Source: an uncultured archaeon
Lineage (GTDB): Archaea > Asgardarchaeota > Lokiarchaeia > Sigyniarchaeales > SOKP01
Assembly (NCBI GenBank): GCA_964447495.1
Contig: CAYUTF010000014.1
Coordinates: forward strand, 1 to 57,966
Reading direction: 5' to 3'
Length of the DNA: 57,966 bases
The position numbers and the translations under genes were made by a program. Below are positions 15,777 through 41,669 of this stretch, piece after piece. Under the pieces are notes generated by a model. It had not been told where the DNA came from and made no database searches. It worked only from the letters and a program-made list of their open reading frames with translations. The stretch's first letter is position 1. Every line of letters starts with the position of its first letter.

Positions 15777-16145
15777 ATGACACTTGAAAGAAAGGATGCT
15801 CCTAAAAGTTTCATCCCTACTTTTGTAATATGGATTGCCATATGTAATATAGTGGCAATAATCTTAGCAATTGTTTGGAATATTCAATTTCCTCAGAGTT
15901 TTTATTTCGATGCGACAGTTTCAATGTATATCATTATTGCGATCAATATTCTAAGCCTCATTCTATTATATCCGTTGCGTCGTATGGATCCAATAACTCC
16001 ATTTCTAAGGAGTGCGCTCATTTGGTATGTTGTAATAACGATAATATATATCATCTTGGGTGCTTATTTTGCACTGATACCTGGAACAGTTCAACTGCTA
16101 GGTGACCTTTGGTTTCATTGGAAGCGGAAAAAGCTAATAGGATGA
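15777..16145 (+). CDS. Hypothetical membrane protein
   Basis: 122 aa with 3-4 hydrophobic segments. Confidence 0.65.
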   Translation: MTLERKDAPKSFIPTFVIWIAICNIVAIILAIVWNIQFPQSFYFDATVSMYIIIAINILSLILLYPLRRMDPITPFLRSALIWYVVITIIYIILGAYFALIPGTVQLLGDLWFHWKRKKLIG

Positions 16146-19439: not shown

Positions 19440-20738
19440 TTAATGAATCTGGAGTCGTTTTTTACTGAGTAAGATTAACCCCACTACACTAATTAGTGCA
19501 ATCATGATAAAACTCATCCCGAAAGGAATTGCCGGTCCTCCATTTGGAGGTAATGGGAGTTCGTTATATAGAAGGTATACGCCTCTATCTATAGAACCTG
19601 CCACGATATAAGCACCATCTGCCGACATCGCTATACTAGTAATTTCTCCGCTTGTGGTGTAATTAAATAGTGGTGTAGAGCTGGTTCTTTCAAATACATA
19701 GACTTTAAAGTCGTAACTTCCGACTGCGAGGTACTTACCATCCTCTGAGATTGCGATGCATCGTGGGTGGGTAGAATCAGATATTGCTCCTCCCGCAGTA
19801 AAGTTCCATAGAGGATTCGAGCTTGATCGTTCAAAAAGATAGGTTCTATTATCCTCCCCTCCTGCCACAATATAAGCCCCGTTGAAACTTATTGCGACAC
19901 TGTTTATCTGGTCATCGGCGGTATAGTTCCATAAAGGAGTGGAGCTGGATTGATGGAAGAGAAAAACTTTAGTACCGCTTGTCCCTACGACGATATAATT
20001 TCCATCAGTCGAAATTGCTACCGAATGGATATCTGAACCCACAGAATAATTCCATAATGGTGTAGCATTATTTTTATCAAAAAGATACACTCGATTGTCA
20101 TGACTTCCTGTCGCAATATAAGTACCATCCCCGGAAATAGCTACAGACCACACAGCACCACCGGTAGCATAGGTCCATATTTCCGGGTTTGGGCTAATAA
20201 TTGAATTATTCAGAAGAATAATCGATCCATCGTATCTAGCAGCGATAACGTAATTTCCATCGGTTGAAATGGCAACATCATTCATATAATTCCCCGTTGG
20301 GTGATAATCCCAAATAGGTTGTTTTGGTGAAGTAATCGAATTATTAAGCATGTATATGTGCTCATTATCGTTAACTGCCGTGATAAAATTTCCATCACCA
20401 GAAATGTCCGTCCCGTAAACATTCGATGATGTGTTAAAAACCCATAATGGCAACTTTGAGTTAGATGCTGTATTATTTAATAAATACACACTCCCTTCAG
20501 AGCCAAGCGTAGTTGCGCTGATCAAATTACCATTAGCAGAAGTAGCTACACATCGGACTTCCTCGTTTGCGGTAAAATTCCATAAAAGGTGATCAGAAGA
20601 ATCATTAGTCTTGAGTAGATTTTTTTCATTTGATGTTAAAGCCATCGTATTCCCACCAATTAAAACCACTCCAAAAAAATTGGAGGCAGAAAAGGCCAAC
20701 AATAAAAATATAACTGCATGCATTAATTTCTTTTTCAT
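19440..20738 (-). CDS. Extracellular WD40/PQQ-like beta-propeller with C-terminal sorting tail
   Basis: About 8 repeats of PLWNYT...SVAISxDGxYIVAGSxDxxVYLF; signal peptide; tail AIPFG-TM-KKR. Confidence 0.9.
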   Translation of the reverse strand: MKKKLMHAVIFLLLAFSASNFFGVVLIGGNTMALTSNEKNLLKTNDSSDHLLWNFTANEEVRCVATSANGNLISATTLGSEGSVYLLNNTASNSKLPLWVFNTSSNVYGTDISGDGNFITAVNDNEHIYMLNNSITSPKQPIWDYHPTGNYMNDVAISTDGNYVIAARYDGSIILLNNSIISPNPEIWTYATGGAVWSVAISGDGTYIATGSHDNRVYLFDKNNATPLWNYSVGSDIHSVAISTDGNYIVVGTSGTKVFLFHQSSSTPLWNYTADDQINSVAISFNGAYIVAGGEDNRTYLFERSSSNPLWNFTAGGAISDSTHPRCIAISEDGKYLAVGSYDFKVYVFERTSSTPLFNYTTSGEITSIAMSADGAYIVAGSIDRGVYLLYNELPLPPNGGPAIPFGMSFIMIALISVVGLILLSKKRLQIH

Positions 20739-20983
20739 TAGATTCAACAAATTTCTTTTTTATAACTCTATATACGCACCCACCAATTTAAATCCTATAT
20801 ATGTAAAAATTCGAAAAGTAACACCTAAAAGAAATTTAATTTGATTCCTAAGATATTATAACAAAGAAGGTTATACTAAACTTAAATAAAATAAATTATA
20901 TATAATCTATAAGGAAATTCCAATTAGAAAAGTATCTTCCAAGCGATAAACCATTAAGGATGAAAAATTTAGAAGTTTAAAAA

Positions 20984-23909: not shown

Positions 23910-24248
23910 ACCTTCCTTAAAAGATATTTCAAAATTTATTTTTTTATATATAAACTTTGGAGCCTTCCTTATAATAAACCTATTTTTTTTAACATTCTCG
24001 AAATATGTAAATTAATTTATTATAAACAGATATTCCTTATATTAAACATTACTGTTTGAATTTAATTTACTAATATAGATTTTAAAGAACCTAAAATATT
24101 CAATATTTTTTAAATGGTTCCAATTTACGATAATTAATCCCTTAAGTCATTGATTTATCGACATTTATTGGTACAAATTAGGAATGCCTAAATTTAAATA
24201 TGAACAAACTTTTAACAATTATAATAAAATAATTAATAACTATAAAAA

Positions 24249-25013
24249 ATGAAGCAAACAGTAAATTATGGAAATTGGGTCCCTCGCAATTTCTTATATC
24301 TCTTTATAGGTGTATTTTTAATTCTATTGATTCCTACGTTATTTTCAATAATTCCCTTAGCTAAAATCATATTATGGGTGATTGCAGGAGTATGGGCTCT
24401 GCCTTCCGCATTCATGTTTTATTTATACTATTATTTTTCTACAAATAACAATGAGATACAATATAAGATTTGGGATTTAGTGATTCAGAAATTACCGTGG
24501 AATGGGAAAGGAAAAGCACTTGATGTTGGAACAGGAGCAGGAGGCTTAGCAATTGAGCTTGCTAAAAGATATCCTGCCTCTGATGTATGCGGAATAGATT
24601 ATTGGGGAAAAACATGGAATTATTCAAAACAGCAGTGCGAAAAGAATGCTGAATTAGAAGGGGTGGCAAACCAACTTATGTTTCAGAAGGCGACTGCCTC
24701 AAAATTACCCTTTAAAGACGGTGAATTTGATGCGATTGTGAGCAATTTTGTCTATCATGAAGTAAGAGACACCAGGGACAAAAGTAAACTCATTAATGAA
24801 TCTTTACGGGTCTTAAAAAAGGGAGGTTCCTTTTCTTTACAGGATACGTTTAAAAATAAGAGACGATATGGACAATATGAGGATTTAATAAGGCAAATGA
24901 AAGAATGGGGTATTCAGCAAATTAATTTTGTTGATTCAATAAATGAGCTAACAATGCCCAAATTGGTGAAAACTGAATTGAAAACCATGGGTTTAATATA
25001 TGGAATAAAATAA
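24249..25013 (+). CDS. Class I SAM-dependent methyltransferase with N-terminal TMs
   Basis: LDVGTGAG, LPFKDGEFD, RVLKKGG. Confidence 0.9.
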   Translation: MKQTVNYGNWVPRNFLYLFIGVFLILLIPTLFSIIPLAKIILWVIAGVWALPSAFMFYLYYYFSTNNNEIQYKIWDLVIQKLPWNGKGKALDVGTGAGGLAIELAKRYPASDVCGIDYWGKTWNYSKQQCEKNAELEGVANQLMFQKATASKLPFKDGEFDAIVSNFVYHEVRDTRDKSKLINESLRVLKKGGSFSLQDTFKNKRRYGQYEDLIRQMKEWGIQQINFVDSINELTMPKLVKTELKTMGLIYGIK

Positions 25014-25092
25014 TAGAGTATTAAATACCTTTCTATCTAAAATAGCAATATTTTAAGAAAAAATAAGCAAAAAAAAAAGATAAAAACCTAGG

Positions 25093-25740
25093 TTAAATTT
25101 TTGATTCTTCCATAACTTTAATAGCATCAGCTTTAGTTTTTACGGTTGCGACGGAATCAAGAATCTTTTTATGAAACACCGTTTCAATGTCCACCAAATT
25201 TTTAATAACTTTTTGCATAGTTTCTAATTTTATTTTATTAAAATCTACGGTAGCTACTTTTACATCGTTCTCTTCTTTCGCAGCTTTTTCCTTAGCAGTT
25301 TTTAATTCCATTTCAGCAGTTTGAATTTCATTCGGTTTTAATTTTTCTTTTGGTTTACTTTGGACTTTGCTTAAATGCTTTTCAGCTTTTTCTAGCTCTC
25401 TCGTAGCTTTTTGTGCCTCGTTCTGTTCCGTCTGAAGTTTTTGTAAGCCAACCAACAGTTCGTTTAGCGGAGCAATATATTCTTCTCGGAGTCTTTTGAC
25501 TTTTTCCGTGCTTTCTTTTTCAATAATTTCAAATGTGGACGCTAATGAACTTACCGCTTGTCCTAAGGAAGGAGTCTCCGTCTCAGCATAACCTTTTAAT
25601 GCAGTAACCGTCTTTTTAATATTGGTTGTGACGTTCTCTTCTGCATTAATATAATGATTACTTCCTTTAATTAACTCATTTATTTTATTGCTGGTTATTC
25701 CTAAGGCATTTGTTAAATTATCCATAAATTTCTTAAACAT
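25093..25740 (-). CDS. BAR-domain-like helical protein (FAM92/CIBAR-like)
   Basis: All-helical 215 aa protein with YAETETPSL, the IAPL helix-2 kink, IQTAEMEL and IETVFHKKIL, recalling FAM92/SNX-type BAR domains. Confidence 0.7.
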   Translation of the reverse strand: MFKKFMDNLTNALGITSNKINELIKGSNHYINAEENVTTNIKKTVTALKGYAETETPSLGQAVSSLASTFEIIEKESTEKVKRLREEYIAPLNELLVGLQKLQTEQNEAQKATRELEKAEKHLSKVQSKPKEKLKPNEIQTAEMELKTAKEKAAKEENDVKVATVDFNKIKLETMQKVIKNLVDIETVFHKKILDSVATVKTKADAIKVMEESKI

Positions 25741-26037
25741 TTTTAAACATCTTCGTTATAATTCGGGATCTAAATTATGTAAGAGTTTATAACGTTATTG
25801 TTTATAAAAAATCAATAAAATTTCTTTAGCTAAGAAATTTAACTCTCCTTATCAGCAGAAGTACATTAATTCATGGATGTGAACTATAAATTTTTAAATA
25901 TATTTCTTGAATAATTCTTAACTAATGATTATTTTTTTTTAACATCTAGAAATTTACTATGAGAAGGATGAAATTTTAAAATCCAATAAAAAAATACAAT
26001 CAGACCTCAATTTACTTGAACTTTTAGTGGTAAAAAT

Positions 26038-27909
26038 ATGAAATGGCGCTATGTATTAATTGGCATAGGGTTAGTGATTGTTTTAATTTCACTCTTTTTT
26101 ATCGAATTCTTCATATTTCATTCGATCTTCTGGAGTTTCTTAATTTCAGCAGCAGCGATGTTGAATTATGCTCACATCCTTACTCATAAGTTAAATTGGG
26201 AATTAGATCCGAAAAAGGTAATTGCCCTCTATTTCATTCTCTCCTCAGCATTGATAGCAACCGAATTTCTATTAACAGGAAATGTAATTTGGAGCTTTTC
26301 TTTAACGGTTATGTCACTTTTTTTTATAGGTCATTATTTATCAATTGGGTTTAACATTCTTTTCAAGCAATTTCATATAAAAGAAGTCTATCGGGGCTTA
26401 ATTAGCTTTTATTTGGTATTTGTGTACTTTTACATAATAATGTTTATATTTCTCCAGAGTATCAATCAAACTTCTATTTTAATTGAATTTACGTTTATCT
26501 TTTATATTTCCCTTATCGCAATGATTTTATTTACTATAAATTCGTTAATTAGAATTGTTGCAGTCAGTTTTCATCGAAGAAAGTACGATATATTTCCTAT
26601 TAATCGGATAGAATATGCTGCCTTATACTTTTTAAGAAGGGCAGAAAATAATCACCTCACTTTTTCGGAATTAAAAAAACAACTCAAGGGAATATTTAAT
26701 ATCTTCACAGAAAATATCTATTTTGACGATAAAACAGCCAAATCTAGCATTTATTATTTATGCGCACTTGGATTTGCAGATATTAACGGCGATGAGGTGT
26801 ATCTGAACGATTTGGGCAAACAACAAGGAGAAGTATGGAATGAAACGCTAAATAGTCAAATGAAGAATTTTAACAAAATTTTAACCAGAAAAACTGTACT
26901 AATTCGGTCATTTTTAGGATTATTTTTCCTGAGCCTCCTTAAAATCTTTATAGGGTTTTTCAATTCAGAATCACTGTTCGCAGAAGGCTTTGAGAATTTA
27001 TTGGATTGTATCGCCGTCATATTAATTGTAATTGGCATCAGATTTAAACAAGAAAAAGTAGTAAATATCGTCATCATCAGCTTAATGACCTTTACAGGAG
27101 GCTCTATCATGTTGAATTCAGTTCAATCTTTATTCTATGGTCCCGAACCCATATCCAATGTCATATACATCGTGATAATCGCTATAATCTCGATATTTTT
27201 AAATACATATTTACGCATTTTGAAAAATTTTGTGGGGAAAAAAAATCGGAACTCTTCCCTTATCGCGAGTGCTATAGATTCGAAAGTAAACATTATATTA
27301 TCCATTAGTATCATCATTGGTGCTCTTTTATCCAATCTCGGGACAGCACTCGGAATGCCCTTATTTCATTATTGTGATCCAATTATCGCCCTCTTTGTAT
27401 GTGCTCTCATATTTAAAGAAGTTATTGAAATTTTACGCGATCTAATTGCCTCGAAAGAAGAAGAAATTGAATATGAGAAATTCCAGATGAAATATGAAAA
27501 GAATTTCATGGAATACATAACCAAGTGGATATTTACCGTTTATAATGATAATATAAATTTGAAATTCACACCCATACAATTATCAGAATATTTCCTGAAA
27601 TCTCTGAAAAAAGGCGAAGAGGTATATACAGAGTTCGCTTCTTTTGGACTATATTTATTTAAAGAAAAAGGAGTAATATCGGTAATAAATGACTTACTTC
27701 ATGAAAACTTTTTGTCGCTGTCAAAAGAGGGATTAATTACATTGACAAAAAAAGGTGAATACTTTTATGACCACCTCTACTCTAAAGAATTACTGAAAGA
27801 TCTCAAAGATCCGTTTGATTTCTTTTTTGAAGAACAAATTAGTTTTGATAGTATAGAATCCAGAAAGCTCGAGATATTGGAAAATTTTCAAATCATTAAG
27901 AGTAATTGA
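26038..27909 (+). CDS. Cation diffusion facilitator (CDF)-like transporter fused to extra TM and winged-helix-like domains
   Basis: SESLFAEGFENLLD, SLIASAIDSKVN and DPIIALFV CDF-like motifs; flanking LNDLGKQ and LTKKGE wing motifs. Confidence 0.75.
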   Translation: MKWRYVLIGIGLVIVLISLFFIEFFIFHSIFWSFLISAAAMLNYAHILTHKLNWELDPKKVIALYFILSSALIATEFLLTGNVIWSFSLTVMSLFFIGHYLSIGFNILFKQFHIKEVYRGLISFYLVFVYFYIIMFIFLQSINQTSILIEFTFIFYISLIAMILFTINSLIRIVAVSFHRRKYDIFPINRIEYAALYFLRRAENNHLTFSELKKQLKGIFNIFTENIYFDDKTAKSSIYYLCALGFADINGDEVYLNDLGKQQGEVWNETLNSQMKNFNKILTRKTVLIRSFLGLFFLSLLKIFIGFFNSESLFAEGFENLLDCIAVILIVIGIRFKQEKVVNIVIISLMTFTGGSIMLNSVQSLFYGPEPISNVIYIVIIAIISIFLNTYLRILKNFVGKKNRNSSLIASAIDSKVNIILSISIIIGALLSNLGTALGMPLFHYCDPIIALFVCALIFKEVIEILRDLIASKEEEIEYEKFQMKYEKNFMEYITKWIFTVYNDNINLKFTPIQLSEYFLKSLKKGEEVYTEFASFGLYLFKEKGVISVINDLLHENFLSLSKEGLITLTKKGEYFYDHLYSKELLKDLKDPFDFFFEEQISFDSIESRKLEILENFQIIKSN

Positions 27910-27916
27910 CTTGATT

Positions 27917-28291
27917 TCAGATTCTTATTGTATTTAAAATTACTAAAGAAACTGAAGCGATAAGAATGATTCCAAACATAATGACAAATGACCACTGCTT
28001 TTTTTGTCCATAATAGCCTGCTGAATTGATTACGGCATAAATCACTAATCCCATTGCCAGAATAAAGAAATTAGATGCCCAAGGGAGCCCTATAAGAAGT
28101 AAAATTCCACTTATAAGGGAGAGAAGTCCCATAGTCATTTCAGCAGTTACATGAAACCGTATTGCTACAGGCTCGGTTTTTGATTCGGGTATCTGTTTAG
28201 TAACATACAACATCGTCCAAAGACCTATAATCCCAATTCCGATAACTATGGCATATATTCCACTAATTAGTAAAAGTACTATTTTTCTCAC
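27917..28291 (-). CDS. Hypothetical 4-TM membrane protein
   Basis: Hydrophobic ORF with FHVTAE and NSAGYY; GTG at 28291 is the likely start. Confidence 0.7.
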   Translation of the reverse strand: MRKIVLLLISGIYAIVIGIGIIGLWTMLYVTKQIPESKTEPVAIRFHVTAEMTMGLLSLISGILLLIGLPWASNFFILAMGLVIYAVINSAGYYGQKKQWSFVIMFGIILIASVSLVILNTIRI

Positions 28292-28594
28292 ATCATTACG
28301 CAATTTGGTTTGAGAAGAATAGAACGTAATTCAATAAAAGATTTAGCATTCTTAATCGTTTTAATAAACTCAGGAAAAATTACGTAAGGGATAAAGAGTC
28401 CCTGACCATAAGGGAATTTAATGTTAAAACAAATAAAATAGCTATGATGAAATGGTGAAAATTTATTTTTAAAATGTTTTTTGGGAATCAAATTTTATAA
28501 ACAACCTATTTGATTATAATATATAGAATAGAGTATTTGATTTATTTATAATTTGTTAAGGCAAATTCTATCATATCAATGGAAGTGAAATTCA

Positions 28595-30355
28595 ATATCT
28601 TCTGCTAAAAACAAACTAAGAACACAAATTCTAAGATTAGAACAAGGTTTTCCTCAAAATTGGTTATACATTGAGCGAAAAGTCAAATATACACATAATA
28701 AAAAAGAATCTGAGGGTGTAAAGGCGAGTGAAAATTTTGTTGGAAAATATATTGATGAGATTTTTCAAAGAGACATATTAGATGTATACAATGAAAGGAT
28801 AACTAAAATTAGACCTATAATCGGGCCTAATGGGGCGGGAAAAACTACTCTTCTAAAATTTAAAGTTAAAAAAGCTGCAGAAGAGATTGCTTTTGAAAAT
28901 CTAATATATTTATTTTTTGATTTTAAAGGAGTGACAGATAATATAGAAGAATTTTGGCCTATTTTTCTACAGAAATTCCTTTCACAATTAACAGAAGCCG
29001 ATAGACCAATATTAGTAGAAATCTTAAACAGATTAGATCAAGTAAATAGAGAATTAGAATTAATGAAAATTTTAAAAAATCCAGATTTAGTTAATAATAC
29101 TTTAAAACTTATTTCTAATTCTTCAAGAGAAAGGCAATCTGCATTAAGCTATTTTTATAATATGCAATTAGATAATAAGACTATAGGTGATTTTTTCTAT
29201 GGAATTTTGAATTTAGCACTCCAATTAGATATTCTTGTGGTAATAGCTTTTGATGAACTTCAATTTCTTGATGAAATTGATGAGTCAAATAAATTACTGA
29301 AATTATTTTTAGAGAAATTTATCAGACACTTAATGGAACAGTTCCAAAATCAACGTCTTTATATTGCTATTTCATGCCTTGAAAATCCAAAAGATGAAGA
29401 ATGGACAAGATTAAAAACCCAAAGCAAAAGTTTTGCTAGTATTGTGGCTAATAAAGAAATCATACTTGGAAACTTAATGGTTAATGAAAAAAATGAAATT
29501 ATAGAACAAGTAGCGGATAAAATAGGTTTTGACAGAAGCAATCAGAAAATATTTTATTCTAAAATTAAAGAATCTTTACTATATTTTTTACCAAGAGATC
29601 TATTGAAACAAATCGCTTATGTGTTAGACACTATGGATTATATGGGATATACAGAATATGAAATAAGAACTATTTATGAAGAGAATGCTAGAGAATTTAT
29701 GGAAGAGAAACTTAGAAAAAAAGGATTTAAACATTTGCTCCCTGAAGTGAAAAATGTAGGAGGATACAATATAGATATTTATGCTACTGGAGCTACTAAT
29801 CGTTCTGGTTATATTCCGAAAGCTTTTGGGGAAGTGACAATATCAGGACGCTCAAAGATGAAGCAGAAGGTAGAAAAATTCTCAAATTGGTTATTTAGAA
29901 TGAGAGGGCGAGAATATAACCCTGAAAAAAATGATTATGCTTTTTTTGTCTGTCCTCCAAATTCTATTACTGAAGGGACACAAAAAGTGTTAAAGGATAA
30001 TATTATAGAGCTTTTCTATTTTAATTCTCCAATTGTTGAGCAAATTCAACGTCAGCGGAATAAAGATGTACCAGAAGTCAAAGAAAAACCAAGTGACATC
30101 ATGGGATTAATAGATATAAAAAAAGGAAAAAAATCAGAAGTAGGATTAATATTTGTCAAAGAAGAAAAGTATAAACTTGAACATATTCCCGGTATAGGTC
30201 CCGCTTTTGCAGAAAAATTAAGAAAAGGAAAAATTTTTACAGTAAAGGATTTGCTAAATTGCAATGTTAAGATGAAATCGAAAGAGATTAAAGGAATTGG
30301 TGAAGCTCGTTTAAACACGTGGAAGCAAAATGCCAGACAGATATTAGAAGATTGA
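28595..30355 (+). CDS. P-loop (AAA+/STAND-like) ATPase fused to a PD-(D/E)xK-like domain and C-terminal helix-hairpin-helix domain
   Basis: Frame is open from 28589. Walker A GPNGAGKT at 28823-28846 is upstream of the tracked start 28931; Walker B IAFDE; LPR; IDIY...FGEVT; IPGIGP...IKGIGE. Start (ATA 28595) is inferred. Confidence 0.75.
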   Translation: MSSAKNKLRTQILRLEQGFPQNWLYIERKVKYTHNKKESEGVKASENFVGKYIDEIFQRDILDVYNERITKIRPIIGPNGAGKTTLLKFKVKKAAEEIAFENLIYLFFDFKGVTDNIEEFWPIFLQKFLSQLTEADRPILVEILNRLDQVNRELELMKILKNPDLVNNTLKLISNSSRERQSALSYFYNMQLDNKTIGDFFYGILNLALQLDILVVIAFDELQFLDEIDESNKLLKLFLEKFIRHLMEQFQNQRLYIAISCLENPKDEEWTRLKTQSKSFASIVANKEIILGNLMVNEKNEIIEQVADKIGFDRSNQKIFYSKIKESLLYFLPRDLLKQIAYVLDTMDYMGYTEYEIRTIYEENAREFMEEKLRKKGFKHLLPEVKNVGGYNIDIYATGATNRSGYIPKAFGEVTISGRSKMKQKVEKFSNWLFRMRGREYNPEKNDYAFFVCPPNSITEGTQKVLKDNIIELFYFNSPIVEQIQRQRNKDVPEVKEKPSDIMGLIDIKKGKKSEVGLIFVKEEKYKLEHIPGIGPAFAEKLRKGKIFTVKDLLNCNVKMKSKEIKGIGEARLNTWKQNARQILED

Positions 30356-35325: not shown

Positions 35326-35589
35326 TTGGAAAAATATTATTGTACAAAATGTAGGAAATACCATCATCGAGGGAAAATTTATACAAATCACTTGAACTTC
35401 AAAAGAAAGGAAGTTAAGGTGGATGACAGTCAATTAATTGACCCTGAAGATGTAAATTTTGAGGATCTTAGTCCAATCGCTAAAAGACAAATCCTCAGTT
35501 TAATAAAAAGGATGAAAAAAAATTATTATCCTGAATTTTATAAAAACCGAATTATGAACGTGATTAAGTATGAGAATAAAAATAATTGA
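35326..35589 (+). CDS. Small putative zinc-finger protein
   Basis: YYCTKCRKYHH...H at the N-terminus; TTG start; overlaps the next gene. Confidence 0.7.
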   Translation: MEKYYCTKCRKYHHRGKIYTNHLNFKRKEVKVDDSQLIDPEDVNFEDLSPIAKRQILSLIKRMKKNYYPEFYKNRIMNVIKYENKNN

Positions 35590-36877
35590 AAGATTAATAC
35601 CTATTAGTGAGATTTATTCAACAGTTCAAAAAGTGTTGAACTCTCATTTTACGATATCTGAGAATTCTATTATTTCTCAAGATTATCTGTTAATTTTAGC
35701 AGTTAGTGAAACCAGTTTTGTTTCCGTCATCCATGCATCGCTGGATAAGAATTTTGAAAGGACATATCTCTCCACCATGCTACTCAAAATTCAATCCTTA
35801 GCCAAAATATTAGACATCCAATACAATTCAAAAGAAGATATCAATGATATTGAAGATAAATTAATTCAAGCATTAAATATAGAGGAAAATGATAAAATTC
35901 TCTATCCGTTTACAGAGTTCTCTAAGTTTCAATTGGTACAAGATCAAGAAAATAGGGACATTTCTACACTCGAGAGTAAGATAATTAGCACACTCCTAAA
36001 ACATCTCTATACTAAAATTGGTTATTCCGATGAAATTATGAAATTTCCTTTTTCCATAACGTACATGGATGGGAAACGGGAAGAATGGGAGGAAAAATAT
36101 CATCCCTATATTAATTCAATCGAAAAAAGAATAAAAGAGAATAGTGAAGATACCACTAAAATATATCGCAATTATGATTTTGCGCTTGATAGTGATATCT
36201 TTCAGAGAATGTTTGATTTATTAATATTAAGTACTTATGAAGCTGAAGCTGAATTAAATGGTGCGGAAGAAGATGAGGGCACTCTTTATAACTATGAAGT
36301 TACTTTTATTTATTGTAATAAAACCTCTCAACCATATACATATATGAATTTACTAAAATTGATGAATGAAATTAACAAATTTGCGGATAAATTTAAAAAA
36401 GACAAAAGTAAGAAATGTAATATTATCCGATCGCAAATAATTTTAATTTCCTTATCTGGGTATGAACTTAAAATTAAGAATTACTTGAGAGATCATCTTT
36501 TCAGGGAATCAGATCATGCAATACCCTTATTAACGGTACCTCCTATTAATAATGAAGTATGGCATAACTTATTTGATTATGATGATTTAATTAATTCCAA
36601 ACAAAAAAAGAGAGAAGAATTAGGGAAGATAATAAACATCAGTAAACAGCAGCAAGTTTCTAACTCATTTCGAGCTACTCGATTGAAGAATGCAACAAGT
36701 GAATATGAAGAAATAATTGAACGAGAAAGAATAGCTAAATTGGATAAAGACTTTTTAAAAAAGTGGTATTGGATATTAAATGTTCCGGAATCATGCGAAA
36801 TTTTAAATCTAAAGAAAGAAAATGGAAAATTGAACAATTCTATGAAACTTATGAAAGAAAACTTAGAAATTTATTAG
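35570..36877 (+). CDS. Hypothetical protein, possible degenerate restriction-endonuclease-like fold
   Basis: 435 aa ORF; FDLLIL...TFIYCNK...IILISLSGY is weakly Mrr-like. Confidence 0.6.
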   Translation: MRIKIIERLIPISEIYSTVQKVLNSHFTISENSIISQDYLLILAVSETSFVSVIHASLDKNFERTYLSTMLLKIQSLAKILDIQYNSKEDINDIEDKLIQALNIEENDKILYPFTEFSKFQLVQDQENRDISTLESKIISTLLKHLYTKIGYSDEIMKFPFSITYMDGKREEWEEKYHPYINSIEKRIKENSEDTTKIYRNYDFALDSDIFQRMFDLLILSTYEAEAELNGAEEDEGTLYNYEVTFIYCNKTSQPYTYMNLLKLMNEINKFADKFKKDKSKKCNIIRSQIILISLSGYELKIKNYLRDHLFRESDHAIPLLTVPPINNEVWHNLFDYDDLINSKQKKREELGKIINISKQQQVSNSFRATRLKNATSEYEEIIERERIAKLDKDFLKKWYWILNVPESCEILNLKKENGKLNNSMKLMKENLEIY

Positions 36878-37703: not shown

Positions 37704-40286
37704 CTATACTACACTATGTTCTGTCCTAGAAATAATTTCATCTTGAATCTCTTTCCCTAAATCAGTAAAATATGCTGAATAGCCTCCGACTTTAACTACT
37801 ATATTCCTGTACGGTTCTGGGTTTTGTTGAGCTGCTTTTAGAACTTCTGTAGATACAACAGTAGGTTGAAGTTGTTGACCTCCTAAACTAAAGTAGGTTT
37901 TTATAAGAGAAATCCATTTATTTCTGGTTTCTTGTGTTTTTCCAATGCCAGAGGGATGCATTCGTATGTTAACTGCACAACCACAAACATGTTGAAAATC
38001 AAGCGCTGCTACAGATCGTATGACGCCGGTCGGCCCATTTTTCTCGACATTATAAGGATTGCAGCTGGCGGCAAATGGCTTTCCTGCAAGCCTACCATCG
38101 GGCGTTGCGATACCAATTCGCCCATCATAGGTATGCGATGTCATTGATATAATAAACGGAGCATAAACTCCACCCTTGTAGGTTTTATATTTATAGGTTT
38201 CTTCAAATATATGGGTAGTAACTTCTCGAGCAAGTTCATCACATTCAGGGTTTCCATTTCCCCATTTTCCATCGAGATCCAGAATCATCTGATGGATTGT
38301 GTGATATTTGTCAGTGTAATTCTCATCAATTGCGGCGATTAACTCCTTAAAATTGAATTTTCCTTCCTCAAAGATGAGTTTTTTAATTACATATAACGAA
38401 TCTACTGTATTTGCAATACTGTTCATTATGAGAATACCTTCCGCATCGTAAAACGCTCCTCCGTGAGTTACATCTTTTTTTCTTTTAATACAACCCCCCA
38501 TGAATGCCGATATAAAAGGAGCAGGAAAATACTCGGCAAATAGCCTATCACGTATATTAGTGGCTTCTACTATTTTCTGAATAACAAAATCTACTTGTTG
38601 GTAATAGGCATCGAGAAATTCTTCAAATGTAGCAAACTTATTCGGGTTTCCTGTTTTCAATCCCACATCATTAACTAAACCCCCGATTGTCATGCAGTTT
38701 CCATTTCGAAGTGTCATATCGAGAGTTCGACAGAGTAAAAGAGCTGAAAAACTTATTCCACCTGTCTTCCCCGGACTACACATATCAACACATCCGGTAA
38801 TGGAATACGCATTTGCATCTTTTTCTTTAATTCCTCGTTTCTTTAAGGCTTCAATACACACATTATCATTTAATATCGAAATACTAGAATATCCGTTGTA
38901 CTGTATTTCTGCTACCTTTAAATATAAATCTTCAGGAGTGCGATCATGATAACGAACCGCAAAATTAAGGGATGCTTTTGATCGGTCTGCTGCTTCTAAT
39001 ATTATGTACGTGAGATCATTTGTGGCATCTTCTCCCTCTTCAGTTAAGCCTCCTAGCGTCACCGGTTCTGAACCTTCAAATCGTTGGCTAAAATCACTTA
39101 CAGCGTTAGAATAAGGACGAATATTATGGCTCATTATGTTTAAAACCAATTCTTCGAATAATTCTCGTGCCTCTTCTCTAGTGATAAGCCCTTTTTTAAG
39201 ATCTGATCGATAAAAAGGGTAAAATATCTGATCTAAACGACCTGGACCATGCACATTAAAGGGTACTGCTAAATCAACAACTGTTTTCACAATCCAAAAA
39301 GTCTGTATTGCCTCACGAAGCGTAGTAGGAGGAGAAATTGGGATTGTTTTACATGCCTCATATATTTCTGATAATACTTTCTTCCTCTCAGCGTTGCTAG
39401 TCTTATAAAGTTCTTTTTTCACTTTATCTGCTAATCTTTGCGAAAATATCAACACCGCTTCAAATGTAATTTCAACAGATCGTAAGAACTCTTTCTGATC
39501 ATCAGTTAGATCGTTATTTTTTTCAATTTCCTCTTGAACCTCCTTGAGCATATTCAAGAAACCTTTTCTTAAAATGGTGACATAATCAAGAACTAAATGC
39601 CCTTGCCAGGTACCTATCACCGCACAAGGGGATATTACTATATCATTTTGAGCTGTTTTTAAAGGTAAATGCGATAAAAATGCATATGATTCTCCCGTAT
39701 ATACAGTAGAGTTGGCATATTCTTTTTCAAGCATATCTGCGAGAGTTTTAGTTTTCCAATAAGGTATGAGTTCCTCCAATAAAATTATTTTATTTTCTTC
39801 TCCAATTTGATATGGATTAATTTTTCGTTTATCAAGTGTATCCGTTCCAAGTGTCGTAATTGGCGCCCCTATTTTTTTGGTTTTTTCCAATAATTCGCGA
39901 ACACCATCGGGTCCGATTTTATTAATCATATATGATAAGTAGTTGTTATTACTTTTTTTCATATATTTTTTCATTGTTTTTTCATCAAGTTCCACTTCAA
40001 AAACATTGTTCCATATTCCGCGCTCTATGTCAATAGGTATTCCGATAAAATTTTCTGTCCATTTTCCTGCGATTCGATCATTAGGATCTATATAGATTGT
40101 CATATTCTCAAGCACATGTTTCATTGAAAGTGCAACCCTTACTCCAAGCGATAACCCTCTATCTTCAGTCTCCTTCCATTTCTCTGTGTAGAGCTCTGCT
40201 CGCTCTATAGAGATTATAGGAGTATCATCAAGGAGTCTTTTTCTTATTCTTTTTATTCTTTCACTCGCATTATCAATTAATTGCAT
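37704..40286 (-). CDS. Glycyl radical enzyme (PFL2/GRE superfamily)
   Basis: GRLDQ, VTLGG, Cys loop ITGCVD, ATPDGR, Gly loop VKVGGYSAYF; ATG 40286 preferred. Confidence 0.93.
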   Translation of the reverse strand: MQLIDNASERIKRIRKRLLDDTPIISIERAELYTEKWKETEDRGLSLGVRVALSMKHVLENMTIYIDPNDRIAGKWTENFIGIPIDIERGIWNNVFEVELDEKTMKKYMKKSNNNYLSYMINKIGPDGVRELLEKTKKIGAPITTLGTDTLDKRKINPYQIGEENKIILLEELIPYWKTKTLADMLEKEYANSTVYTGESYAFLSHLPLKTAQNDIVISPCAVIGTWQGHLVLDYVTILRKGFLNMLKEVQEEIEKNNDLTDDQKEFLRSVEITFEAVLIFSQRLADKVKKELYKTSNAERKKVLSEIYEACKTIPISPPTTLREAIQTFWIVKTVVDLAVPFNVHGPGRLDQIFYPFYRSDLKKGLITREEARELFEELVLNIMSHNIRPYSNAVSDFSQRFEGSEPVTLGGLTEEGEDATNDLTYIILEAADRSKASLNFAVRYHDRTPEDLYLKVAEIQYNGYSSISILNDNVCIEALKKRGIKEKDANAYSITGCVDMCSPGKTGGISFSALLLCRTLDMTLRNGNCMTIGGLVNDVGLKTGNPNKFATFEEFLDAYYQQVDFVIQKIVEATNIRDRLFAEYFPAPFISAFMGGCIKRKKDVTHGGAFYDAEGILIMNSIANTVDSLYVIKKLIFEEGKFNFKELIAAIDENYTDKYHTIHQMILDLDGKWGNGNPECDELAREVTTHIFEETYKYKTYKGGVYAPFIISMTSHTYDGRIGIATPDGRLAGKPFAASCNPYNVEKNGPTGVIRSVAALDFQHVCGCAVNIRMHPSGIGKTQETRNKWISLIKTYFSLGGQQLQPTVVSTEVLKAAQQNPEPYRNIVVKVGGYSAYFTDLGKEIQDEIISRTEHSVV

Positions 40287-40557: not shown

Positions 40558-41091
40558 TTAATTTCTGATATTAAACTGAAAATTCCGCTTTTCATTGATA
40601 AGATTACAGATCCTCTCAGGATTTTTTGTTGAGAATGCAAATGGCCGATCATTTTGAAGAGTCAATTTTACTATTTTCCCAAAATCAGTGTTATACGCCC
40701 ATGAACCGTCAAATCCATATCGAATTCCAACTCCCCCGTATGTTCGAAAATGTGCTTTATCCACTTCACAATTCGTAATTTCTGTTAAATGAATCCTTTT
40801 ATGATTAAAGATACCATAATTTACTTCAAGTTGGTGATTAGTTAAGGTAATTTGAAGTCCTCTATAGTTCCAATAGATAAGAAAAATAATTGCACTAAAA
40901 CCAACTAAGATCAGGCCAATAAACGCTAATTCTTCAGGTATAGCAACAGATATAATAATCCCGAGAGAAATAATTAATATACACACAAATAATATTACTC
41001 TTTTTACAAATTTTCCCGCGGGAACCCATTCTGCATACATTACATCATCATTTTTTTCTCCTTTATCGACACTAATGTTAATACTCACCAA
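40558..41091 (-). CDS. Membrane protein with bacterial PH-like domain
   Basis: Two TMs, then a beta-rich region with YGGVGIR and FSTKNPE. Confidence 0.7.
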   Translation of the reverse strand: MVSINISVDKGEKNDDVMYAEWVPAGKFVKRVILFVCILIISLGIIISVAIPEELAFIGLILVGFSAIIFLIYWNYRGLQITLTNHQLEVNYGIFNHKRIHLTEITNCEVDKAHFRTYGGVGIRYGFDGSWAYNTDFGKIVKLTLQNDRPFAFSTKNPERICNLINEKRNFQFNIRN

Positions 41092-41216
41092 TTTAATTTT
41101 GTGGCTTTCTCCATGCTAAATATAAAAAATCACCGATTTAAATTTTGCTAAATTTCATATCTACTTAAATTTGGAATTTCAAAATAAAAAAAGATAAAAA
41201 AAGTACATAAAATAAA

Positions 41217-41669
41217 TTAATCATTTCTTTTATTTTTTCTTTGCATGACGAGATAATAAATCAAAGTACCCAAAAAAGCCCAAAAAAAGAATGAAACAAT
41301 CCATCCCAAAGTCCTATTGATTGCTAAAGCACCAAACACGAAGGAAAAGCACGCGGCATATTCTAAGATAATATAAGGGACATGTGTGATCGCTTTCGAT
41401 CGAAAATCAAATTTGAAAACCGTGTCAAGTAAGAATTCTGCCATTAAGTAACTTATGATTAAAATACAGTAAATTATTAGCATCAGATCTTTTCCAACTA
41501 TTATAAAATTAATCAAAATTGCGATAATGAAAAACATCAGAGCTATAAGAATCCAACCAAATATTCTAACAGTCTTCATCTTATTATTAGCCATTAAAAT
41601 CAGAGCATTCATCATTGAAACAAAAAATACAAATGCTGAAATAATAAACATCCATTCAAATGCTTCTAT
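41217..41669 (-). CDS. Hypothetical multi-TM membrane protein
   Basis: Hydrophobic ORF; GGTGA seven nt upstream of an in-frame ATA at 41669 (alternative ATG 41651). Confidence 0.7.
   Translation of the reverse strand: MEAFEWMFIISAFVFFVSMMNALILMANNKMKTVRIFGWILIALMFFIIAILINFIIVGKDLMLIIYCILIISYLMAEFLLDTVFKFDFRSKAITHVPYIILEYAACFSFVFGALAINRTLGWIVSFFFWAFLGTLIYYLVMQRKNKRND

Follow-up and report, generated by a model that had tools for sequence, protein, structure and literature searches.

A stand-alone protein of a Lokiarchaeial archaeon with a predicted BAR domain and CIBAR/FAM92 as its nearest non-archaeal relatives by sequence

The BAR gene and its flanks

We analyzed a stretch of 57,966 nucleotides (contig CAYUTF010000014.1, GenBank assembly GCA_964447495.1; hereafter the window) from an uncultured Asgard archaeon of the class Lokiarchaeia (Promethearchaeia). 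Its minus strand holds, at positions 25093..25740, an open reading frame (ORF) of 215 codons that runs from ATG to a stop codon at 25093-25095 and encodes 215 amino acids according to the ORF list and its translation. A first-pass annotation, made from the letters of the window, had likened the encoded protein to the BAR domain of animal FAM92/CIBAR. From our in silico analyses we conclude that the protein is almost certainly homologous to eukaryotic BAR domains and shares their fold. Judged by sequence, its nearest non-archaeal relatives are the CIBAR/FAM92 proteins.

The ORF was assigned as the complete coding sequence of a BAR-domain protein based on the ORF list, a match to the Pfam FAM92 model above its cut-off and ratios of nonsynonymous to synonymous substitution rates (dN/dS) of 0.06-0.16. 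For the latter we compared the gene with 19 orthologues from named contigs of metagenome-assembled genomes (MAGs); two of the 21 loci were excluded, i.e., L027, which is partial, and L031, where the match starts at residue 6. In 16 of the 19 pairs dN/dS was 0.061-0.158, i.e., under purifying constraint, and the other three were saturated at synonymous sites. The BAR gene is real and under constraint.

In the existing gene call for this protein (P0002, 210 amino acids) translation begins at M6, the sixth codon, leaving out the first five codons at 25726-25740. We place the start at M1, because many orthologues begin with MFKKLTDALG and lack a second methionine. The MFKK sequence is conserved among orthologues, four of which read it from a TTG start. 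Contigs from two sediment metatranscriptome runs, belonging to two studies, overlapped parts of the ORF. One of 236 nt covered 25508-25743 with 3 differences, another of 151 nt covered 25149-25299 with 1 difference, and further ones were more distant. Neither intergenic flank of the ORF was covered by the RNA-library contigs of these two studies, with contig ends at 25743-25749. As such contigs give neither strand nor transcript ends and are possibly derived from DNA, they are a weak hint of transcription.

The BAR gene is flanked by a convergent methyltransferase gene at 24249..25013 (plus strand) and by a divergent gene of a cation-efflux family at 26038..27909 (plus strand). From ORF layout and sequence, the BAR gene and the efflux gene have in common a 297-bp A+T-rich spacer at 25741..26037, which presumably contains the promoter region of the BAR gene.

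Sequence relationship and predicted homodimer

The Pfam model FAM92 (PF06730) matched residues 9-199 of the protein on model positions 20-210 of 225, with an E-value of 2.1e-8 and 34.4 bits, where the gathering cut-off is 23.6. It was the only BAR model found in the Pfam scan at E up to 10, where Vps5, PX, PspA_IM30 and Snf7 gave no match, although the HMMER filters drop many weak matches. A scan with NCBIfam models gave no meaningful match. When the protein was searched as a single sequence against the PDB, two CIBAR1 entries came out on top (2.1e-8 and 5.7e-7) and the best non-BAR chain followed only at E 0.084. The six sequence strings on which the first-pass annotation was built are all present, i.e., MFKKFMDNLTNALG (residues 1-14), YAETETPSL (51-59), RLREEYIAPL (83-92), SKPKEKLKP (128-136), EIQTAEMEL (138-146) and LVDIETVFHKKIL (182-194). 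In the HMMER alignment with CIBAR1 (9uhd_A), YAETETPSL, RLREEYIAPL, IQTAEMEL and IETVFHKKIL stand opposite YASTETPNL, RLEAKVVEPL, ISQAETEL and IEMLFHGKAL, respectively; the animal motifs that the annotation had named were thus found in the same order and register.

We then used an alignment of 55 single-domain relatives (A1) as our main profile. In the PDB it matched CIBAR1 (4e-22 and 1.3e-20), then amphiphysin (1.1e-4), IRSp53, endophilin, arfaptin and SNX1 (0.04), with non-BAR chains starting at E 0.089. Profile-profile comparison with 15 animal FAM92 proteins gave a probability of 98.9% (E 2.8e-17) over 194 columns. A phmmer search of 1.84 billion representatives reached two animal FAM92 clusters, P0189 (E 1.9e-4) and P0190 (E 4.6e-4). 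P0190 comes from Lottia gigantea; of its 907 matches the best 120 were CIBAR/FAM92 relatives, and wherever these are named the protein is animal. Passages of the eLife paper PMC6904220 are silent on non-animal FAM92.

Scanned singly, 31 of the 55 relatives matched FAM92 in Pfam (E up to 0.01), followed by BAR_3 (20), BAR (14), BAR_2 (4), Arfaptin (4), Vps5 (3) and IMD (3). The nearest cluster in the ESM Atlas is auto-named 'FAM92 protein domain-containing protein' and has 93% archaeal members; after this archaeal cluster come eukaryotic FAM92 clusters (0.92) and then BIN3 (0.91). FAM92 thus clearly outscored the other BAR families. Identities within the archaeal family go down to 20-25%. A specific affinity to SNX-BAR proteins, which the first-pass annotation had named beside FAM92, did not emerge: the likeness to them lies at the level of the fold.

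AlphaFold2, supplied with the 55-relative alignment, modelled the protein with a mean pLDDT of 93.8 and a pTM of 0.80. The predicted monomer consists of three long antiparallel helices (residues 2-53, 57-127 and 138-205) over about 200 residues, as in classical BAR domains and as anticipated from the sequence, and ends with a short helix (209-214). Foldseek placed the FAM92A BAR domain first (9uhd, TM 0.84/0.85, rmsd 2.1 Å), then 8ceg_B. The other matches listed were members of the BAR superfamily, with no PspA or ESCRT-III entry among them.

In the model, helix 1 (residues 2-53; 25582..25737, minus strand, as are all parts of the gene) forms half of the predicted dimer interface, to which it contributes within residues 15-56. 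Its positions 30, 33, 37, 40, 44, 48 and 51 align with interface residues of FAM92A helix 1. YAETETPSL (25564..25590) forms the turn from helix 1 to helix 2 and, aligned to CIBAR1 YASTETPNL, is the strongest motif common to the protein and animal FAM92. The position of Y51 is 100% hydrophobic in the family, and E55, T56 and L59 are invariant in a nine-sequence alignment (A3). Helix 2 (residues 57-127; 25360..25572), assigned from the model and the alignments, includes Pro91 (25468-25470), likewise invariant in A3. It aligns with P167, the proline at which helix 2 of FAM92A is kinked (PMC12269497). The turn between helices 2 and 3 is formed by a Lys-rich tip region (residues 124-137, SKVQSKPKEKLKPN; 25330..25371), which lies outside the predicted interface. 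Helix 3 (residues 138-205; 25126..25329) was assigned from predicted contacts and alignments and carries a zipper, LVDIETVFHKKIL, with His190 at 25171-25173.

Homodimer prediction gave an ipSAE of 0.78 (0.78, 0.77 and 0.78 in three runs), and the best of three controls scored 0.00. The three runs share 100% of their contacts, with a partner pLDDT of at least 89. In the calibration of the prediction tool, the mark was reached by 20 of 30 solved homodimers and by one of 23 proteins solved as single chains. The predicted interface is symmetric, comprising residues 15-70 and 165-215, and joins the chains through helices 1 and 3 into an antiparallel six-helix bundle. His190 lies on the predicted two-fold axis, the lowest-error contact being that of residue 190 with itself; it aligns with the FAM92A zipper residue H264 and is invariant in A3. 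For mouse FAM92A, 19 interface residues are listed (PMC12269497), and all 19 map inside the predicted interface in ungapped stretches of the 9uhd_A alignment. The protein is hence predicted to be, very probably, a homodimer. The predicted bundle has the six helices that the first-pass annotation had expected of a crescent-shaped dimer; the basic concave face expected along with it is not supported, as by alignment the tips are basic and conserved and the central patch is neutral or acidic.

Proposed membrane contact, distribution and alternative readings

In eukaryotes, BAR proteins link the cytoskeleton to the shape of membranes, which their paired-helix module senses and bends. We consider it probable that the window protein is a stand-alone classical BAR-domain protein that works as follows. 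Helix 1 and the C-terminal half of helix 3 would hold two antiparallel chains together in the six-helix bundle, whose symmetry axis would pass through His190. The Lys-rich loops (K125, K129, K133 and K135) would lie at both distal tips of the dimer and, together with the basic amphipathic beginning of helix 1, make its contact with an anionic membrane. Curved membrane might thereby be sensed or stabilized, plausibly at the protrusions typical of Lokiarchaeia.

No part of the family is more conserved than the tip loop. Among the 55 relatives the residue is basic in 98% at K125, 89% at K129, 91% at K133 and 78% at K135, in keeping with the Lys-rich tip noted in the first-pass annotation. To within about three residues by the alignment used, the loop aligns with lipid-binding region 2 of FAM92A (R201/R203/R205). 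Residues 1-14 (MFKKFMDNLTNALG; 25699..25740) form the basic amphipathic beginning of helix 1, as assigned from hydrophobic moment, continuity in the model and alignment to the ordered FAM92A chain. Their hydrophobic moment of 0.56 ranks 11th of 202 windows along the protein and was matched by 0.4% of shuffles, and 34 of the 46 scorable relatives have an N-terminus with a net positive charge. The N-terminus is thus amphipathic as claimed earlier. The H0-like helix claimed with it is not supported as a separate helix: in the model, helix 1 runs through this stretch without a break, and the alignment pairs residues 1-209 of the model with residues 8-214 of FAM92A, which are ordered there. Taken together, homology and conservation pattern make membrane binding or curvature sensing reasonably likely.

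Several observations weigh against this proposal. In FAM92A, mutation of a central basic cluster on helix 1 (R108, K109, R112, R114 and K116) abolished about 90% of liposome binding (PMC12269497). The corresponding residues here are N32, A33, N36, T38 and N40, i.e., neutral. In the 55 relatives, position 32 is acidic in 44% and position 40 in 69%, and position 36 is basic in 44%. The net charge of the protein is just +3. In pairing the chains, the predictor may be reproducing the FAM92A dimers that have been solved. The gene is also patchily distributed, it has no conserved neighbour that would point to a pathway (both detailed below), and nothing ties the window protein to the two BAR proteins that were seen with Lokiactin, at sub-significant levels, in L. 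ossiferum.

The missing central patch makes plausible a rival reading, in which the BAR-fold dimer would be mainly a protein-binding scaffold, e.g., an arfaptin-like effector of an Asgard small GTPase or a cytoskeletal adaptor, with weak or indirect membrane contact. We regard this as the main alternative, albeit an unlikely one: among surface features the Lys-rich tip loop is conserved best, which fits lipid contact, and no gene for a GTPase or another partner lies among conserved neighbours. The two roles are moreover not exclusive, and arfaptin binds membranes too.

Cultured Lokiarchaeia form dynamic, actin-filled protrusions, as described in passages of PMC13716822. According to the same passages, a co-immunoprecipitation with Lokiactin from L. 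ossiferum contained two proteins with BAR domains, at levels below significance. The host genome of the window (3.81 Mb, 98.4% complete) gave four actin-family matches, the best with 442 bits. A tie of the protein to protrusions or Lokiactin is speculative and rather unlikely. The host genome contains a single FAM92 match, and none of 14 control genomes gave any. The Pfam models BAR (PF03114) and Vps5 (PF09325) matched nothing in the host genome, in a search that had no positive control and did not include BAR_3, IMD and Arfaptin. The model for Chibby (CBY1) found no match in this genome either, nor did it match any control genome.

We searched 400 genomes with the 55-relative profile, scoring seven candidates per genome, and found matches in 62. 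All but one lie within the order or class of the window; the exception, elsewhere in the phylum, is a weak match (E 8.3e-4). Besides the window's own genome, the tallies are 45/134 in its GTDB family, 1/1, 9/14 and 3/4 in other families of the order and 2/2 in one further family of the class. Close relatives bear the labels Lokiarchaeota, Promethearchaeota, Promethearchaeia, Hermodarchaeota or Thorarchaeota. The archaeal origin of the distant representatives was inferred from genome searches and the ESM Atlas cluster. Within the GTDB family the gene occurs in 46 of 135 genomes, found alike by the profile and by a single-protein query that scored up to 22 candidates per genome. It occurs in 13 of the 36 high-quality genomes and, besides the window's own, in 11 of 41 genomes of the genus. 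Five genomes of the same genus that are 99-100% complete lacked it by three different queries, including Pfam FAM92. From this patchy presence among close relatives we conclude that the gene is accessory and serves no core function. Identities also disagree with taxonomy, with 87-88% to some copies from another genus and 67-68% to some from the same genus. Together, patchiness and incongruent identities suggest loss, lateral transfer within Lokiarchaeia, or binning effects.

The domain also occurs in other arrangements. A more distant genome of the class (G128) has three divergent family copies (E 1.7e-14 to 3e-11), two of which, at 38970-39605 and 40751-41392 of its contig (L012, C3), lie about 1.1 kb apart and flank a 253-aa ORF. 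In some Lokiarchaeia of another GTDB family, ORFs of 448-553 aa contain two tandem-fused BAR domains of the window protein's kind, each ORF with two matched stretches. Examples are L009 5986-7362 (minus strand, 458 aa), L010 6001-7356 (plus strand, 451 aa), P0129, P0147, P0163 and P0186. Such a fusion would be a ready-made single-chain 'dimer'. P0158 (467 aa) combines about 240 residues of HEAT/PBS-lyase-type repeats with a C-terminal BAR domain of the window protein's family, which hints at a protein-binding partner module.

Clustering of the ORFs from the window and 12 related loci brought together the BAR genes from 12 of these 13 sources, and every other family was common to at most three, so that no operon partner emerged. 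In a genome of the same genus that lacks the BAR gene (G248), the methyltransferase and efflux genes lie 96 bp apart on one strand, the efflux gene first (L035 558-1404 and 1501-3380), and align by BLAST at 77-79% nucleotide identity to window positions 24175-25024 and 26030-27909. We rejected a clean empty site, i.e., a simple insertion or deletion, since the swapped order of the flanking genes denotes a local rearrangement. Repeats around the gene were likewise rejected as insertion scars, being short A+T-rich matches. Elsewhere in the window, a 436-aa WD40 beta-propeller protein encoded at 19440-20750 (minus strand) matches many eukaryote-type propeller models. ORFs of 435, 122 and 128 aa at 35570-36877 (plus), 15777-16145 (plus) and 27917-28303 (minus), respectively, had no Pfam match at E up to 1e-5, and the sole match of a 474-aa ORF at 28931-30355 is a C-terminal helix-hairpin-helix motif.

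The distribution bears on a second alternative, namely that a eukaryote was the source of the gene, either through horizontal transfer or because the bin is contaminated with eukaryotic DNA. The near confinement of the family to one Asgard class, its patchiness even inside one genus and the higher identity of other-genus than of same-genus copies would all fit a transfer. However, in a tree of 55 archaeal and 15 animal sequences the two groups were split by a single branch (support 100, about 2.4 changes per site), with no nesting either way. This tree was built with a quick method, has no outgroup, includes only animals as eukaryotes and contains three long-branch rows. The archaeal family is moreover deep, so any transfer would be ancient. 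Contamination is excluded, because the gene lies on a 58-kb contig of ordinary intronless prokaryotic genes and the family occurs in 62 genomes and on 21 named archaeal MAG contigs of up to 3.3 Mb. We therefore consider a eukaryotic source very improbable.

That the protein is a generic Lys/Glu-rich coiled coil or PspA/ESCRT-III-like, its BAR likeness being convergent or compositional, is practically negligible: PspA and Snf7 profiles were missing even at E up to 10, non-BAR PDB chains began only at E 0.084 (single sequence) or 0.089 (profile), and motif identity runs in order through all three helices, including the kink proline and the zipper histidine.

The classical BAR-domain reading could be carried further. 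The CIBAR/FAM92 lineage would then be pre-eukaryotic and the Lokiarchaeial family the stock of ciliary and mitochondrial CIBAR, binding in a simpler way, through tips and the start of helix 1 without a central patch, and shaping or sensing actin-filled protrusions as an accessory, laterally mobile module. We think this extension quite unlikely.

Comparison with known BAR proteins

Neither the family nor its annotation is new. Asgard BAR proteins have reportedly been described since about 2015, the year of the Lokiarchaeum genome paper. As the first-pass annotation had stated, BAR-like proteins of Lokiarchaeota are on record: passages of the review PMC4917890 mention 'a putative BAR domain protein' of Lokiarchaeum, and orthologues with 79-81% identity to the window protein (P0069, P0113) bear the NCBI name 'BAR domain-containing protein'. 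PF06730 is annotated on all 120 relatives listed in the protein collection. Supplementary Table 2 of PMC9834061 lists the Asgard cluster of orthologous genes cog.007079, 'Bin/Amphiphysin/Rvs (BAR) domain', in L. ossiferum and P. syntrophicum. The window protein, from the same phylum and class and of the same superfamily, is a candidate member of this cluster. The main text of the asCOG preprint makes no mention of BAR. Our literature searches found no paper that ties Asgard proteins to FAM92/CIBAR and no biochemical study of an Asgard BAR protein. Archaeal BAR proteins are hence already known and annotated, and the window protein is a solid but expected example.

As a compact, very well modelled product of a single-copy gene, the protein is a convenient candidate for a first biochemical test of an archaeal BAR domain. 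The tip lysines, His190 and residues 1-14 are clear mutational targets, and the missing central basic patch offers an informative contrast with FAM92A. The patchy spread of the gene bears on whether eukaryote-like genes of Asgard archaea are core or accessory.

BdpA of Shewanella oneidensis has been described as a protein with BAR-like activity (PMC8687657). It resembles the window protein in being prokaryotic and in its proposed membrane sculpting by a BAR-like domain, and differs in being bacterial; the two are likened by description only. BdpA was absent among the matches of all sequence searches made for the window protein, none of which was aimed at it. Asgard 'Vps5-BAR' homologues, often fused to Vps28 in Thorarchaeia (passages of PMC10307638), share with it the BAR superfamily and an Asgard host, and the Vps5 Pfam model matched three of the 55 relatives. 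In contrast to these and to SNX-BAR proteins, the window protein stands alone, with neither Vps28, PX nor a Vps5 match, and Vps5 was not found in its genome. Unlike the N-BAR proteins (amphiphysin, endophilin and BIN1-3), it has an amphipathic stretch that is modelled as continuous with helix 1.

The closest known system is the animal classical BAR proteins CIBAR1/FAM92A and CIBAR2/FAM92B (PF06730; PDB 9uhd and 8ceg; PMC12269497, PMC11266426 and PMC6314547). The window protein has their BAR-domain length and three-helix layout and carries YA-x-TETP-x-L, (I/V)-x-PL, AE-x-EL and I-E-x-x-F-H in the same order. They are its best match in sequence, profile and fold, and it resembles them in a predicted antiparallel homodimer at homologous positions with a conserved axial histidine and in the basic cluster at the distal tips. 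It differs from them in an identity of only about 20% and a long branch between archaeal and animal sequences, in N, A, N, T and N in place of the central basic cluster, and in the lack of a C-terminal extension (215 aa compared with 261-391 aa in most animal proteins listed). Since its host has neither cilium nor mitochondrion, its cellular role must differ from that of CIBAR.
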